The notes below the pieces were generated by a model. That model did not search any database. It saw nothing but the letters and a program-made list of their open reading frames with translations, and was not told the DNA's origin. A DNA stretch of 16,660 nucleotides from a virus (taxonomy: Duplodnaviria; Heunggongvirae; Uroviricota; Caudoviricetes). Location: the IMG/VR virus record IMGVR_UViG_2728369188_000006, positions 1 to 16,660 of that record; one strand, given 5' to 3'. The position numbers and the translations under genes are program-made. Below, one piece after another: positions 9,684-16,660 of the stretch (position 1 is the stretch's first letter; each line of letters opens with the position of its first letter).

Positions 9684-10725
9684 ACAGGTTAGCGTTTGGG
9701 TTTTGTTGTTGGGGAGCTGTTTTTATAGGCGCTCCCAGGTTTTTAGTAAACCACTCAACGACTCTGTTTATAATAATTGGCTGATACCATGTCTTATCGC
9801 CATGCTCGGCCCCTTCTACCAGCACGTACTCAGCGTTATCGCCGTTCTTCTTCAACATCCTGAATAGTTTGGCGCTTTGCTCAGGTGAAACCAGAGTGTC
9901 TTTGCTACCATGCATAATAAGAAATGGGGGTTTTACTCCTTTCATATGTCCGATTGGACTGGCGTTTAGCGCTTTTTCTTTTGACGCTGTGATGGGGGCT
10001 CCCGCAAAATTTCTGAATGCAGGGCCATTGATCATTAAGGCTTCGGTTACGGCAGGAGAGCGATGAACCTCCTGCACTGATTCAGGGAACCCCTCGCCAA
10101 TATTCAACAAGTCAGAAATCCCATAAAGTGTGGCAACTGCCTGAACATCTGAGGATTGCTGAAGAAAGTCACCTTTATCAAAGGTTTTGTCACCATTTGT
10201 AGTTCCCATCATCTGAGCAAGCCATCCACCGGCAGAGTCACCCAGAACTCCGATTCTTTGAGGATCAATCCCATAATTGCTGGCATGCTCTCTCAGGTAA
10301 CGTATTGCAGCTTTTCCATCCTCAACTGGTGCTGGAAATGTATCAGGAATTGTTCTGTATTCTACAGCGGCCACAACAAAACCAGCTTCTGCCAGAGCCA
10401 TTCTCATTTCAATAAATTTGTCATGTTCAGAAGACATGAATCCGCCGCCGGGATAATAAATAATGGCTGGTTTTAAATCATTTGTTCGCGGGACAAGAAC
10501 TGACATGTGAAGCTGTCTGACAGAACGAGTTCCTTTTATCTGGGAATAAACAACATCACCAATGAGATCGACTTGGTTTCTGGTCGGTGAAACACTAATG
10601 ATATCTGCACCCGGGGTGTAACCAGGAAGATTAGTCTGGACAGGTGTTGCACAACTCCCGACCGACATGGCCATTGACATACCATACAATAGTGTTGCAG
10701 ATGATAATATCTTGTTAATTTTCAT
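9682..10725 (-). CDS. Secreted, probably lipoprotein, alpha/beta-hydrolase esterase/lipase (hormone-sensitive-lipase-like family IV), 347 aa
   Basis: Contains PGGGF (HGGG-type oxyanion region), the GDSAGG nucleophile elbow, and downstream Asp (HGSKDTLV) and His (GAEHGD) candidates in canonical order. The N-terminus MKINKILSSATLLYGMSMAMSVGSC looks like a signal peptide with a lipobox-like Cys. Confidence 0.8.
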   Translation of the reverse strand: MKINKILSSATLLYGMSMAMSVGSCATPVQTNLPGYTPGADIISVSPTRNQVDLIGDVVYSQIKGTRSVRQLHMSVLVPRTNDLKPAIIYYPGGGFMSSEHDKFIEMRMALAEAGFVVAAVEYRTIPDTFPAPVEDGKAAIRYLREHASNYGIDPQRIGVLGDSAGGWLAQMMGTTNGDKTFDKGDFLQQSSDVQAVATLYGISDLLNIGEGFPESVQEVHRSPAVTEALMINGPAFRNFAGAPITASKEKALNASPIGHMKGVKPPFLIMHGSKDTLVSPEQSAKLFRMLKKNGDNAEYVLVEGAEHGDKTWYQPIIINRVVEWFTKNLGAPIKTAPQQQNPNANL

Positions 10726-11023
10726 GTTTTACATGCCTTGACTTATCGGATGAAATTCTCTTACTGAATTTAACGGCAGTTTAATAGCCGTACAACTCGT
10801 GGTAGCCAGGGAAATATCCCAGTCGTGGTTAAGGTTGTACTTGACGGCTATTATTTCAACAATGCTTAAAGTGAGAGCTTAAGGTTATGCGTATGTTTTA
10901 CAGTCCGAGTAGATTCTGACCAATAGCTTCTTTGTATAATTCTGTCAGAAATAAATCTTGGCTTGCATGAAGTTTGAGACCTTATCTTGTTTGATTATGA
11001 ATAATCAATTCGCCATAATTGTA

Positions 11024-11050
11024 TCACCGGAGCCTGAACAACTCCGGTGA
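11024..11050 (+). other. Perfect 9-bp inverted repeat hairpin (TCACCGGAG / CTCCGGTGA, 9-nt loop) in the cargo-nin intergenic region
   Basis: Seen directly in the sequence. No strong T-tract follows, so function (terminator, processing or operator site) is unknown. Confidence 0.3.
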
Positions 11051-11172
11051 CTTCTGCGCTAAACGGGGACGTTTATGCGCACACACAATCCAAACTCTCT
11101 TCTCCCTTCACAGATGCAGAAATGCACCTGCGTTTTTTTGCATCCAGCGTCTGACCTCTGTGGAGGTGAAGC

Positions 11173-11628
11173 GTGAACCTACCACAAGATGGCATCAAAC
11201 TGCATCGCGGTAACTTCATCGCTATCGGCCAGCAGATCCAGCCTTATCTGGAGGACGGAAAATGCTTTCGCATGGTGCTTAAACCGTGGCGTGAGAAACG
11301 CAGTCTTTCCCAGAATGCACTCAGCCATATGTGGTACAGCGAAATCAGTGAATACCTCATCAGCAGGGGGAAATCGTTCGCTACCGCAGCATGGGTAAAA
11401 GATGCTCTCAAACACACATACCTCGGTTATGAAACCAAGGACCTGGTTGATGTCGTAACCGGCGAAATCACTACTATCCAGTCGTTACGCCATACCTCCG
11501 ATCTTGATACCGGAGAGATGTATGTCTTCCTGTGTAAGGTTGAAGCCTGGGCGATGAATATTGGCTGCCACCTGACTATTCCGCAGAGCTGCGAGTTCCA
11601 GCTGCTGCGCGACAAGCAGGAGGCGTAA
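11173..11628 (+). CDS. ybcN: NinB/Orf-family protein (YbcN-like), 151 aa
   Basis: GTG start with a GGAGGTGA ribosome-binding site. The protein [15 protein letters not shown]...[20 protein letters not shown]... matches what I recall of DLP12 YbcN and the NinB motif (RSLDQN...W). Its stop overlaps the ninE start. Confidence 0.8.
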
Positions 11629-11798
11629 TGGCTACACCGCTTATTCGTGTCATGAACGGACACATCTACAAAGTACCAAATCGTCGTAAGCGTAAACCTG
11701 AGCTGAAGCCATCCGAAATACCAACACTGCTCGGGTATACCGCCAGCCTGGTTGATAAAAAATGGTTGCGACTGGCAGCAAGGAGGAATCATGGCTGA
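11628..11798 (+). CDS. ninE: NinE-like small protein, 56 aa
   Basis: Not in the ORF track (under 60 aa). ATG at 11628 overlaps the ybcN stop (TAATG). The translation [56 protein letters not shown] matches DLP12 NinE as I recall it. Confidence 0.7.
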   Translation: MATPLIRVMNGHIYKVPNRRKRKPELKPSEIPTLLGYTASLVDKKWLRLAARRNHG

Positions 11799-12081
11799 TT
11801 TAAGAAAAGCAGCGCGTGGTCGGGAATGCCAGGTAAGAATCCCTGGCGTATGTAATGGCAATCCTGAAACGTCAGTACTGGCACATATCCGGCTGGCTGG
11901 ATTGTGCGGTACCGGTATCAAACCGCCAGACCTGATTGCCACCATTGCATGTTCTGCCTGCCACGACGAAATCGACCGTCGCACGCATTTTGTTGACGCT
12001 GGATATGCAAAAGAATGCGCGCTGGAAGGTATGGCGAGAACACAGGTTATCTGGTTGAAAGAGGGGGTTATTGAGGCGTGA
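11791..12081 (+). CDS. ybcO: YbcO-like DUF1364 putative nuclease (Cys-rich metal-binding), 96 aa
   Basis: The likely start is the ATG at 11791 ([10 protein letters not shown]...), preceded by AGGAGG, not the track's 11752. CxxxxxC...CxxC cysteines are present. The stop overlaps the rusA start. Confidence 0.8.
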
Positions 12082-12440
12082 ATACCTACAGCATCACATT
12101 ACCCTGGCCTCCGAGCAATAATCGCTATTACCGCCATAATCGTGGGCGCACGCACGTCAGCGCAGAGGGGCAGGCATACTGCGATAACGTCGCCCGAATC
12201 ATTAAAAACGCAATGCTGGATATCGGCTTGGCTATGCCAGTGAAAATCAGCATTGAGTGCCACATGCCGGATCGCCGTCGCCGTGACCTTGATAATCTGC
12301 AAAAGGCCGCTTTTGACGCACTCACCAAAGCAGGTTTCTGGCTGGATGATGCTCAGGTCGTTGATTACCGCGTTGTGAAGATGCCCGTTACCAAAGGTGG
12401 GAAGCTGGAGCTGACTATCACTGAACTGGGAGATGAATGA
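12078..12440 (+). CDS. rusA: RusA Holliday-junction resolvase, 120 aa
   Basis: [34 protein letters not shown]...[32 protein letters not shown]... is near-identical to E. coli RusA as I recall it. Confidence 0.9.
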
Positions 12441-12577
12441 TGTTTGAGTCTTATATGGCAGAGCGTCTTCGCCGCCGCTGGGTGCGCCTGCGCTTATATC
12501 GTTTTCCTGGTTCTGTTTTGACCGATTACCGAATACTGAAGAATTACGCCAAAACCCTGACAGGAGCAGGAGTATGA
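12437..12577 (+). CDS. ylcG: YlcG-like small prophage protein, 46 aa
   Basis: Not in the ORF track. ATG at 12437 overlaps the rusA stop (GAATGATG). Translation is [46 protein letters not shown]; its position between rusA and Q matches DLP12 order. Confidence 0.55.
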
Positions 12578-12662
12578 AGTCAGAGATAACAATCAACTAA
12601 TACTGTTTTGTTGATTTTTGCTTGTAATTGGCGTTCTGGTCTGATTTTTGTGGAGTAAGTTG

Positions 12663-13046
12663 ATGCGTGATATTCAGATGGTTCTTGAGCGTTGGGGAGC
12701 GTGGGCGGCTAATAATCATGAAGATGTGACCTGGTCGTCCGTTGCCGCCGGTTTTAAGGGATTAATTCCTTCAAAAGTAAAATCTCGCCCGCAATGTTGT
12801 GACGATGACGCGATGATCATTTGCGGGTGCATGGCCCGTCTGAAAAAGAACAACAGCGATTTACACGATTTATTAGTAGATTATTATGTATGTGGTATGA
12901 CATTCATGTCACTGGCAAGTAAGCATTGCTGCTCGGATGGTTATATCGGGAAAAGGTTACAGAAGGCTGAGGGCATAATTGAAGGGATGTTAATGGCATT
13001 AGATATCCGGTTAGATATGGATATCGTTGCTAATAATTCTAATTGA
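12663..13046 (+). CDS. quuD: Late-gene antiterminator Q (QuuD-like), 127 aa
   Basis: ATG at 12663 with a GGAG ribosome-binding site; the track's 12648 start is a TTG extension. [24 protein letters not shown]...[18 protein letters not shown]... matches DLP12 QuuD as I recall it, with a Cys-rich zinc-binding region. Confidence 0.85.
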
Positions 13047-13067
13047 TATGCAATTGTTTACTAAAAG

Positions 13068-13096
13068 TTATTAAAAATGGGGCGTGGAAACGCCCC
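13068..13096 (-). terminator. Putative terminator hairpin for minus-strand (porin) transcription
   Basis: GGGGCGT-GGAA-ACGCCCC stem-loop (13079-13096). On the minus strand it is followed by ATTTTTAATAA (plus 13068-13078). It lies about 140-170 nt downstream of the porin stop. Confidence 0.4.
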
Positions 13097-13183
13097 CAAA
13101 ATAAAGGGTAATATATAACAGAAGGTTTATATAGTAAGAAGCAAGGTAGTGCTTCTAAAGGAAGTGGCTTGAGGGCTCCACTT

Positions 13184-13226
13184 ATATGTTGCGGAGGCAA
13201 AGCCTCCCGCAACATATCTTTTTCGT
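13184..13226 (+). terminator. Putative tR'-like intrinsic terminator downstream of Q
   Basis: About 15-bp stem ATATGTTGCGGAGGC / GCCTCC(C)GCAACATAT with a small loop and one bulged C, followed by CTTTTTCG on the plus strand. Its position roughly 140-180 nt after Q is where lambdoid phages place tR'. Confidence 0.5.
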
Positions 13227-13234
13227 AAGTCAGA

Positions 13235-14100
13235 TTAGAACTGATAAACCAGACCTACAGCGACGATGTCGTCGGTATCAATACCAGCTGTTTTGGTAAA
13301 CTTACTATCGTCAATTAAGTTGATTTTGTAATCAACAAAAGTGGACATGTTTTTATTAAAGTAGTAAGTAGCACCGACATCGACATACTTGACTAAGTCT
13401 CGGTCACCATGAACACCAAGGTCTTTACCTTTTGACTGAAGGTAAGCAACAGATGGTCGCAGACCGAAGTCAAACTGATATTGTGCTACTGCTTCAAAGT
13501 TTTGTGCTTTGTTTGCAATATGGTTATTACCAAAAACGGTCATATTCTGAGTTTCAGAATATGTGGTAGCCAGATAGATATTGTTCGCATCATATTTCAG
13601 GCCTGCAGCCCATACTTCCGCATTTTTGCCGGAGGCATTGAATTTGCTCTTACCATAGGCGACCTGACCGTCAGTGCGATCTGATTTAGCATAGGTTGCA
13701 CCCACGCCGAATCCTTCATACTCATAAGTAGTGGAGAAACCGAAACCATCACCATTGGCTTCAGTTACGTCAGTGCGGTCATTTTTACCCTGATACTGAG
13801 CAGCAAAGTTCAGGCCATCGACCAGACCAAAGAAGTCGTTGTTACGATAAGTTGCAACACCAGTAGTGCGACCAGTCATGAACACATCTGTTTGGGTCCA
13901 GGTATCACCACCGAATTCTGGCAGGACGTCAGTCCACGCACCGATGTCGTATGCTACACCGTAGTTACGGCCGTAATCGATTGAGCCGTAATCACCAAAT
14001 TTCAGGCCTGCAAATGCAAGACGGGTTTTGTCTTTGGAAGAACCTTGAGATTCAGCACGGTTGCCTTTGAATTCATATTCCCACTGACCGAAACCAGTCA
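13235..14100 (-). CDS. nmpC: NmpC/Lc/OmpC-family general porin, partial: C-terminal about 288 aa, 5' end runs into the assembly gap
   Basis: The translation from ...[48 protein letters not shown]... to the ...VAVGLVYQF terminal Phe motif aligns with OmpC/NmpC. The signal peptide and first roughly 70 residues are not present before the N-run. The track's extension to 14218 is antisense translation of stf and is not porin. Confidence 0.9.
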
Positions 14101-14110
14101 NNNNNNNNNN
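14101..14110. other. Assembly gap (10 N) joining two non-contiguous gene fragments
   Basis: A run of n at 14101-14110. The porin gene (minus) is cut mid-ORF on the left and the stf gene (plus) is cut mid-ORF on the right. Confidence 0.95.
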
Positions 14111-14111
14111 C

Positions 14112-15932
14112 TCCAGACCAGGTACGCTGAATGATTTTCTCGGTGCCATGACGGAAGATGATGTCATGCCGGAGGCATTGCGTCGTTTTGAGGTAATGGT
14201 GGAGGATGTGGCACGCAACGCTGAAGCCGCCTCTCAGAGCGCAGCGGCAGCAAAGAAATCAGAAACAGCAGCGGCATCGTCCAGGAACGCGGCGAAAACA
14301 TCAGAGACGAATGCAGGTAACAGCGCGAAAGCGGCAGCTTCTTCAAAAACAGCCGCACAAAACGCAGCAACAGCGGCAGAACGTTCAGAGACAAATGCCC
14401 GTGCGTCAGAAGAAGCCTCCGCAGACAGTGAAGAGGCTTCCCGCCGTAATGCAGAGTCAGCCGCTGAAAATGCCGGAGTCGCCACCACAAAAGCGCGGGA
14501 GGCTGCAGCAGACGCAACAAAGGCCGGGCAGAAAAAGGATGAGGCTCTGTCGGCAGCGACACGAGCTGAAAAGGCGGCAGACCGCGCAGAAGCCGCAGCG
14601 GAAGTGACTGCAGAGCCCTATGCGAATATAGTGCCGCCGCTGCCTGATGTGTGGATACCGTTTAACGATTCACTGGATATGATTGCGGGTTTTTCTCCGG
14701 GCTATAAAAAAATAGCTATTGGTGACGATGTGGTTCAGGTCGCCAGTGATAAACAGGTTAATTTCAGTCGCGCATCAACGGCAACATATATCAACAAATC
14801 TGGCGAACTGAAAACGGCGGAAATTAATGAGCCGCGATTTGAGTGTGATGGCCTGCTTATTGAGGGACAAAGAACGAACTACATGCTCAATTCGGAAAGT
14901 CCAGCCAGCTGGGGGAAGTCATCAAACATGGATGTGCCCGAAACCGGGACGGATAGTTTTGGTTTTACTTATGGAAAGTTTGTCTGCAACGATTCTCTGG
15001 TTGGGCAAACTTCGGCTATTAATATGGCATCAATTGCTGCAACAAAGTCAGTTGATGTCTCAGGCGATAACAAGTACGTGACAACCTCATGCCGTTTTAA
15101 AACAGAACGACAGGTAAGGTTACGTATACGGTTTGATAAGTATGATGGTAGTGCAACAACTTTTCTTGGCGATGCGTACATTGATACGCAAACGCTTGAA
15201 ATTAATATGACAGGTGGTGCTGCCGGCAGAATTACGGCACGAGTCAGGAAGGATAAGACCACGGGCTGGATTTTTGCAGAGGCAACGATTCAGGCAATTG
15301 ATGGTGAGTTAAAAATAGGCTCTCAGATACAGTATTCTCCTGAGCAGGGTGGGGCAACAGTATCTGGTGACTATATTTATCTTGCCACCCCACAAGTAGA
15401 GAATGGGCCGTGTGTATCATCATTTATTATTTCAGGAGGCAGCGCAACGACAAGAGCCAGTGATTTGGTTAGTATCCCCACCAGAAATAATCTTTATAAG
15501 TTACCATTTACTTTTTTACTTGAGATTCATAAAAACTGGGATATTGCACCAAACGCCGCACCCCGCGTGTGGGATATAGCAGCAGCCAATACCGGGCAAT
15601 CAGCAATTGCAGCAATCAACAGAGGTAGTGGTAAGTTATATATGAGTCTGTCAAACCCTTCAGGCTCGTATGTTAATAGCGCAGCGACAGATGTATTTGC
15701 AGAGAAAACCACATTTGGATGTATTGCAAAAGCTGATGGTCACTTTCATGTGGTGACAAATGGTAAAGCGGTTAATGAAGTTTATTGTGAATATAATGGC
15801 GTGACCGCTGATAAAAATATCCGATTTGGAGGGCAGACGAATACTGGAGAACGACATCTGTTTGGCCATATTCGCAATTTCCGCATATGGCATAAAGAAT
15901 TAAATGACAGGCAATTAAAAGAGGTCGTATGA
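14112..15932 (+). CDS. stf: Side tail fibre protein (lambda Stf-like), 5'-truncated by the gap, with a C-terminal LamG/ConA-like putative receptor-binding domain
   Basis: The frame is open from the gap (SRPGTLNDFLGAMTEDDVMPEALRRFEVMVEDVARNA), which aligns with an internal segment of lambda Stf (PGTLNDFLCAMTEDDARPEVLRRLELMVEEVARNA). An Ala/Ser/Thr-rich repeat region follows (KKSETAAASS, KTSETNAGNS, ERSETNARAS). The C-terminus ...RFGGQTNTGERHLFGHIRNFRIWHKELNDRQLKEVV looks like the end of a laminin-G/concanavalin-like lectin fold. Confidence 0.85.
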   Translation, partial: SRPGTLNDFLGAMTEDDVMPEALRRFEVMVEDVARNAEAASQSAAAAKKSETAAASSRNAAKTSETNAGNSAKAAASSKTAAQNAATAAERSETNARASEEASADSEEASRRNAESAAENAGVATTKAREAAADATKAGQKKDEALSAATRAEKAADRAEAAAEVTAEPYANIVPPLPDVWIPFNDSLDMIAGFSPGYKKIAIGDDVVQVASDKQVNFSRASTATYINKSGELKTAEINEPRFECDGLLIEGQRTNYMLNSESPASWGKSSNMDVPETGTDSFGFTYGKFVCNDSLVGQTSAINMASIAATKSVDVSGDNKYVTTSCRFKTERQVRLRIRFDKYDGSATTFLGDAYIDTQTLEINMTGGAAGRITARVRKDKTTGWIFAEATIQAIDGELKIGSQIQYSPEQGGATVSGDYIYLATPQVENGPCVSSFIISGGSATTRASDLVSIPTRNNLYKLPFTFLLEIHKNWDIAPNAAPRVWDIAAANTGQSAIAAINRGSGKLYMSLSNPSGSYVNSAATDVFAEKTTFGCIAKADGHFHVVTNGKAVNEVYCEYNGVTADKNIRFGGQTNTGERHLFGHIRNFRIWHKELNDRQLKEVV

Positions 15933-16207
15933 AAGATTTAACTTTGAAGTTTCATGACAAACTGCAGTTTAAGGCCTTCCTGTCATCTCTTGGCTGGGCG
16001 GAAGATGAAGACCTCCAGAATAAACTGTTAGTTGATGAAATTGGTTTCACCTACACAGAAACAGGGGTAACAGAAGAGGGAGAACCTGTCTGTATCCGGA
16101 ATGATGGTTATTTTGTCAACATTCGCATTCTTGATGACTTGTTTGATGTTTCTGTATTCTCTGATTATGTCGTGGAGCTGGAAACACCGCTTCGGGAATG
16201 GAGCTGA
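15929..16207 (+). CDS. Hypothetical small acidic protein translationally coupled to stf (possible fibre chaperone or accessory), 92 aa
   Basis: Its start overlaps the stf stop (ATGA). I see no resemblance to lambda-type Tfa as I recall it. The functional guess rests on position only. Confidence 0.45.
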   Translation: MKDLTLKFHDKLQFKAFLSSLGWAEDEDLQNKLLVDEIGFTYTETGVTEEGEPVCIRNDGYFVNIRILDDLFDVSVFSDYVVELETPLREWS

Positions 16208-16219
16208 AAGGAGGAAATA

Positions 16220-16660
16220 ATGGATATAAGCCCCTTACTTCATGCACTTTGTGCTGTGGCTGCGCAGATACTGGTTGGTCTTTTTACCGGAAACTGGGCT
16301 TACGGAGCGATAGCCGGTTGTACGTTCTTCATTGCGCGTGAACATACCCAGGCAGAATATCGCTGGATTGAAATGTTCGGGCATGGCAAGCGAATGAATA
16401 TGCCGTGGTGGGGCGGTTTTGATCCGCGTGCTTGGGATGTGGCAAGCCTGATGGATTTTGCTGTGCCGGTGGTGGCGTGTCTGCTGGTCTGGCTGTTGGT
16501 TAATCGTGGGCGAAAAAAGGTGAGCTGTATATGCAACGGAGGAAGAAACCCCGTTGCTGGAAGCCAGGAAAAAGTATCGGGTGTTGCTGTCCTCGGATGT
16601 TGTGCTAATTGGGTGATAACAGATCCTGTGTATGGGAGTTTCCCTTTTTGCGTGCGTTGA
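16220..16660 (+). CDS. Hypothetical membrane protein (at least two predicted TM helices), 146 aa; C-terminal 45 residues look atypical
   Basis: Strong ribosome-binding site (AAGGAGG, 6 nt before the ATG). There are hydrophobic segments at about residues 5-35 and 75-95. The tail after RGRKK is Cys/Gly-rich and ends exactly at the window edge, so the 3' end is uncertain. Confidence 0.45.
   Translation: MDISPLLHALCAVAAQILVGLFTGNWAYGAIAGCTFFIAREHTQAEYRWIEMFGHGKRMNMPWWGGFDPRAWDVASLMDFAVPVVACLLVWLLVNRGRKKVSCICNGGRNPVAGSQEKVSGVAVLGCCANWVITDPVYGSFPFCVR

Follow-up and report, generated by a model that had tools for sequence, protein, structure and literature searches.

A ten-nucleotide N-run in a defective lambdoid prophage at icd of Escherichia coli: an ordinary scaffold gap between porin and tail-fibre genes

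A relative of phage lambda that carries all of its modules, NC-SV of strain NC101, has been described in icd, at the site of phage 21 (PMC12803456). The prophage of LF82 occupies the same integration site as the element analysed here and has the same late gene order, Q–porin–holin...J–stf–sitABCD, but it differs in having kept lysozyme, Rz, iss, terminase, portal, capsid and all tail genes, with 24.5 kb where the defective versions at this site have 4.9–6.3 kb; its lysis cassette also differs, being arranged as essD–ydfR–...–lysozyme. The same defective icd prophage as ours is present in AREA_492, 21AR0173, SCU-176 and ST1193 strains such as MCJCHV-1, with flanks that are 99.8–100% identical. 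In closed genomes these defective prophages share the order intE, inverse autotransporter, quuD, porin, essD, a lysozyme–J fusion, stf and sitDCBA; the 4.9–6.3 kb interval between porin and fibre is readable in them, and they differ from one another by insertions of IS4, IS30, IS3 or IS66. DLP12 of strain K-12 (quuD–nmpC–essD–rrrD–rzpD) is likewise a lambdoid remnant without a morphogenesis module. The part of the interval that runs from the porin 5' end through essD to the start of rrrD matches MG1655 with 92.3% identity over 1,220 nt, and the Q–porin–holin–lysozyme segment of our lineage is of the DLP12 type. DLP12 differs in its chromosomal site, in a porin interrupted by an IS (IS5 is listed) and in having no lysozyme–J fusion. 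In Ecol_448 (NZ_CP015076.1) the lysis-to-tail block at the same locus has also been lost, but by an independent IS1-associated event: the complete porin is directly followed by IS1, and J is reduced to its final ~100 nt before stf (L001 15801–16656), about 1.45 kb separates the counterparts of the two edges seen in our DNA, and emrE/ybcK take the place of the inverse autotransporter.

The window, by which we mean the whole 16,660-nt stretch of DNA that was analysed, contains a single run of exactly 10 N. It corresponds to positions 4265–20924 of LRXU01000008.1 (GCA_001571725.1; locus L010), an E. coli draft scaffold of 340,634 bp, with 100% identity over all 16,660 positions, Ns included, and the sole N-run of that scaffold is at 18365–18374. 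As the Ns are present in the public record, the gap is a property of the deposited scaffold and not a later mask, and the earlier note had been right to call it an assembly gap. The remainder of the span which that note had assigned to the gap (14111–14147) is tail-fibre coding sequence 5' of the first in-frame ATG, at 14148. A literature search on the accession (LRXU01, GCA_001571725) for the assembly or scaffolding method found no paper. An ORF of 327 aa is predicted across the ten Ns (13235–14218, minus strand), running on antisense to the fibre gene; this prediction is spurious, an artefact of the gap. The locus resembles the ordinary gaps of draft whole-genome scaffolds in having an N-run in the deposited scaffold, flanks collinear with those of closed genomes, and genuine sequence between them. 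The one oddity by comparison is that 10 N stand for ~5–6 kb, which is unlike the output of short-insert paired-end scaffolders and is a counterpoint to the explanation that we favour.

The two genes that meet at the gap are both cut exactly there, as had been noticed from the sequence alone; they have lost their 5' ends and lie head to head on opposite strands. The porin fragment comprises the last 866 nt (3' end) of a gene of 1083 nt and encodes the C-terminal 288 residues with no interrupting stop codon. In AREA_492 the complete gene occupies L005 14235–15317 (PF00267, E = 1.9e-151, Pfam) and, as window position 14100 equals L005 15100, the first 217 nt (72 codons and 1 nt) are missing. Throughout the left arm, window positions are those of L005 minus 1000 (quuD, for example, is at L005 13663–14046). 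The side-tail-fibre fragment is open from its first base and is the 3' 1822 nt of a 2061-nt ORF of 686 aa, which in AREA_492 runs uninterrupted from an ATG at L005 21210 to 23270 and matches PF08400 over residues 1–131 (E = 4.8e-67); as window position 14111 equals L005 21449, its first 239 nt are missing, of which the first 79 codons are complete. Both ORFs are completed in the finished relatives (L003, L005). PGAP splits the continuous 686-aa fibre ORF into an N-terminal 'pseudogene' and a 'phage head spike fiber domain' CDS, and the C-terminus has a weak match to Laminin_G_3 under the Pfam threshold. The counterpart of the last ORF in the window is annotated in closed genomes as an incomplete pseudogene of 291 nt (L005 23558–23848), with sitD at 23943; in the source scaffold sitDCBA occupies L010 20869–23909. 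The features are collected in Table 1.

Table 1. Features of the window and of the corresponding prophage locus. Positions are those of the window unless a locus is named (L003, SCU-176; L005, AREA_492; L010, source scaffold).
Feature	Position	Strand	Description
Septu-like defence pair	L010 1622–3996		A short way upstream of the window, with icd and the integrase on either side
intE, prophage integrase	1–1127	-	Frameshifted (ORFs 1–492 and 588–1127); left end of the icd element
IS3-family element split by ISEc21 (IS110-family)	~1320–3860		Replaces exo, bet, gam and repressor
Replication gene O	3879–4789		Frameshifted
Inverse autotransporter	5737–9645	+	1302 aa; IAT_beta and Big_1/Invasin_D3 repeats; cargo between P and the nin region
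Alpha/beta hydrolase (Abhydrolase_3/BD-FAE)	9682–10725	-	347 aa; antisense within the nin region
quuD (Q), late-gene antiterminator	12663–13046	+	PF06530; precedes the porin, as it does in late regions of the DLP12 type
Prophage porin (OmpC/NmpC family)	13235–14100	-	Codons 73–360 and stop; from translation and comparison with closed genomes
Scaffold gap	14101–14110		10 N; a placeholder, not a measured length; represents 4,909 bp in SCU-176 or 6,348 bp in AREA_492
Lysozyme–J fusion	L003 21121–24711; L005 16122–21151		Inside the hidden interval; RefSeq name gpJ, WP_001556898.1
Lysozyme–J junction			GACATCATGCTCGGTAAAACGTATAAAGGCAGCAGTAAGGGG
Side-tail-fibre (stf-like) ORF	14111–15932	+	Last base of codon 80, codons 81–686 and stop
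Hypothetical 92-aa gene after stf	15929–16207	+	L005 23267–23545, WP_000654168.1; order as in closed genomes
Hypothetical ORF	16220–16660	+	Runs to the end of the window; sitD follows in the source scaffold

The element is a defective lambdoid prophage at icd, with an integrase beside icd and a late region of the lambda type. The genes icd and intE are both present in SCU-176, AREA_492 and the source scaffold, the late order being quuD–porin–essD and J–stf by Pfam domains, and intE is annotated in closed genomes that match at 100% identity (L003 6001–7127, L005 1001–2127). An inducible prophage would be expected to have intact integrase, early and replication genes; in the window intE and O are frameshifted and the early genes have been replaced. 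These early genes (exo, bet, gam, repressor) are still present in three related loci (L006, L014 and L015).

The whole window was used as a query against 5,426 complete E. coli genomes, in 73 of which a single place covers at least 80% of it. A second query of the same set, where 80% coverage requires the two flanks to lie together in 6.5 kb, was matched by at least 70 closed genomes, with the flanks in the same order and orientation among the matches listed; three of the 73 were not placed with both flanks within that distance. The best matches to the window were AREA_492 (NZ_CP123335.1) and 21AR0173. AREA_492 differs from the left arm by three mismatches in 14,100 nt, with no gaps, and is identical over the right arm (2,550/2,550), including the first base, a C at 14111. 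This C is common to only AREA_492, 21AR0173 and FDAARGOS_536, all three of which have 6,348 bp between the flanks. SCU-176 (NZ_CP054345.1) has four mismatches and one gap in the left arm and is identical over the right arm from 14112 (2,549/2,549). Leftwards the source scaffold reaches icd and rightwards sitDCBA, in agreement with the closed genomes.

That the two edges of the gap are not natural neighbours, as the earlier note had argued, held true, since 4,909 or 6,348 bp lie between them in the closest closed genomes (SCU-176, L003 20100–25008; AREA_492, L005 15101–21448, which is NZ_CP123335.1 2,765,016–2,771,363). The interval consists of the porin 5' end (codons 1–72), 589 bp of intergenic sequence, essD, the lysozyme–J fusion and the fibre 5' end, and the sole difference between the two versions is an IS4 of 1,426 bp in J, with a 13-bp target duplication (CAGCAAACTGGAG). 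The whole 4.9-kb block is present at 99% identity or higher in 79 of the 5,426 closed genomes, and seven other draft or closed assemblies (L007, L009, L011, L012 and L014–L016) read through porin, essD, fusion and stf. Terminase, portal, capsid and tail-shaft genes are all absent from the 4.9–6.3 kb interval in at least 70 of the 73 closed genomes; this loss was seen in the closed relatives, the interval of the source strain itself being hidden by the gap. Judging from the near-identical closed genomes, the source strain would carry the same content.

We propose, with a probability of roughly 0.85, that the Ns are a placeholder from the scaffolding of a draft E. coli assembly and correctly link two contigs of one locus, a sitABCD-carrying defective lambdoid prophage at icd, and that the missing late genes, ~20 kb from Rz through tail gene I, were lost in an ancestor of the lineage by one old deletion between the lysozyme gene and J. 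The hidden sequence would most likely have the length found in AREA_492 (6,348 bp) or that found in SCU-176 (4,909 bp), and would run through 217 nt of porin, 589 bp of intergenic sequence, essD, a 66-codon lysozyme stub joined to J and 239 nt of fibre, with IS4 in J if it is AREA_492-like. Rz, terminase, the head genes and the tail genes up to I would then not be in the gap at all, having been removed by the ancestral deletion.

Why the contigs should end inside these two genes was examined at the break points. The left break falls inside the longest exact run (134 bp, L005 15058–15191) that is shared with a different E. coli prophage porin allele (L017), the one useful E. coli allele from a scan of genome contigs with the porin protein, which otherwise returned mostly ompC orthologues of other genera. 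The right contig begins exactly at a variable site, within a cluster of allele differences (L005 21434–21497) past which the alleles are nearly identical; this is the boundary of an exchangeable stf N-terminal module. Segments of 150 bp from the edges occur at one to two places in close genomes for the left edge and at two to five for the right, and parts of the hidden interval are found at a median of four places per genome. One explanation is that the contigs broke mid-porin and mid-stf on paralogous prophage copies in the same genome. Relatives without IS4 assemble through the region (L007, for example, is a SPAdes contig from short reads) and the breaks are not at IS4 ends, so that this explanation is plausible but unproven. 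Native porin and stf sequence continues to the last base of the two contigs, with no IS terminal sequence at either edge, and a search at both edges found no direct or inverted repeats and no target duplication flanking the gap. An IS junction at the gap is therefore not supported.

An alternative is that the source strain has undergone a private rearrangement, in which porin and fibre are truly truncated and only a short element that could not be assembled, such as an IS, lies between them, the true gap being less than ~1.5 kb. Some scaffolders write a 10-N placeholder when paired reads put two ends very close together, which would suit such a short gap, as would the absence of breaks at the IS4 ends that an AREA_492-like genome should give; Ecol_448 moreover demonstrates that IS-mediated decay has occurred independently at this locus, since IS1 there connects the porin region with the final ~100 nt of J. 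We nevertheless regard a private rearrangement as improbable. Besides the native contig edges and the lack of target duplications or terminal inverted repeats around the gap, both breaks fall in segments that are common to prophage alleles, where the end of a random deletion would not be expected to fall, a porin-to-stf junction at these points occurs in none of the 5,426 closed genomes, and the sole short variant, that of Ecol_448, has the whole porin. The Ecol_448 arrangement itself (IS1, ~1.45 kb) was considered as the gap content and rejected, as this strain is not the closest relative and its left arm is without the inverse autotransporter; genomes that are 100% identical to the window and have a different interval also rule it out. 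Were a private rearrangement to be true (for example, an IS-mediated event in which essD and J were also lost), the element would be one decay step beyond all 5,426 closed genomes.

Under the reading that we prefer, the record of the late-gene loss is the lysozyme–J fusion. This is an ORF of 1196 aa in which residues 1–66 are the N-terminus of an rrrD-type lysozyme, followed in frame by J from codon 3, and its Pfam domains are Phage_lysozyme and four J domains. BLAST matches to porin–essD–rrrD end at position 1220 of the interval and matches to J start at 1219, so the pieces abut; the deletion junction (...GGTAAAACGTAT|AAAGGCAGC...) is in frame, with an overlap of at most two bases and no IS. 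The lysozyme stub keeps its N-terminal hydrophobic segment. In the AREA_492 sublineage the fusion is interrupted by IS4, and in AREA_492 PGAP annotates the stub and J separately. L014 and L015 have both the fusion and intact early genes, which places the deletion before the replacement of the early genes by IS3::ISEc21; the late-gene deletion in this lineage is widespread and old.

The expectation in the earlier note that porin and stf of a lambdoid prophage should be separated by some 20 kb or more is correct for an intact member of the family: in LF82, 24,496 bp lie between the same two points, comprising essD, lysozyme, Rz, iss, terminase, portal, protease, capsid, all tail genes, J, lom and the fibre start. 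The note had suggested that such a module, with the lysis, head and tail genes, might sit in the gap. Complete versions of the prophage do exist at this site, LF82 being one and NC-SV, described as an intact lambda relative (PMC12803456), another, and OZ039818, whose late region is complete as far as tail gene I, where the stretch examined ends, shares the inverse-autotransporter cargo gene. However, OZ039818, the sole full-length genome in which this cargo was detected, reaches only 99.2% identity with the left arm (4600–14100), its early region is intact and it is without the degraded left end of the window, whereas the window is 99.98% (left arm) and 100% (right arm) identical to genomes that have the deletion. 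The window moreover shares with the deleted genomes the frameshifted integrase and O and the IS3::ISEc21 in place of the early genes, among the 73 closed genomes that have this degraded left arm at least 70 show an interval of only 4.9–6.3 kb, and the deletion is older than the decay of the early region. A gap of 20 kb or more that holds a complete late region is thus very improbable, and the full late module is almost certainly absent from the source strain rather than hidden in the gap, as far as can be judged from its relatives.

E. coli genomes contain several copies of porin and stf N-terminal sequences, which are hence prone to mis-joining, and a related draft (L008) has the porin followed by unrelated chromosomal genes, but a mis-join of two unrelated loci, the other explanation that had been offered, is equally hard to sustain, as at least 70 closed genomes have the two flanks side by side, ordered and oriented alike, the scaffold reaches icd and sitDCBA exactly as these genomes do, and a chance join would rarely give order and orientation together. 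Of the earlier interpretation as a whole, the gap, the two cut genes and the distance between their edges stand, and both of the explanations offered for them fall away.

The N-run is an ordinary scaffold gap, the biology beneath it has been catalogued before, and its significance is for quality control only. It would be wrong to interpret the half-porin and half-fibre as pseudogenes or to see a recombination junction in them. By comparison, the lack of head and tail genes is real biology that is already recorded in closed genomes, where the grounded prophage of this lineage retains its cargo (sitABCD, the inverse autotransporter and the porin) despite the loss of ~20 kb of late genes.

Several other features of the locus and its relatives were noted. 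The inverse autotransporter contains a tandem domain repeat of ~355 bp (7041–7394 and 7397–7751, 97% identical), and LF82 as well as Ecol_448 carries emrE and ybcK at its position. The 347-aa alpha/beta hydrolase was found in all versions of the prophage examined. In Ecol_448 there is an IS66 (ISEc23) insertion after stf. In the related draft mentioned above (L008 17499–23909; GCA_006231035.1, SPYE01000106.1) the complete porin is followed not by essD but by SRAP/yedK-like, TusA, sulphur transporter, YedD, amylase, fliT and fliS genes, with IS1 and a gap of 63 N on the other side of the porin; this arrangement is either a rearrangement or a misassembly. Of the Septu-like pair upstream of the window, the first gene encodes a PtuA-type AAA ATPase (PADLOC PDLC00282, E = 2e-239) and the second, annotated as an HNH endonuclease, matches PADLOC PDC-M01B (E = 1.1e-114).
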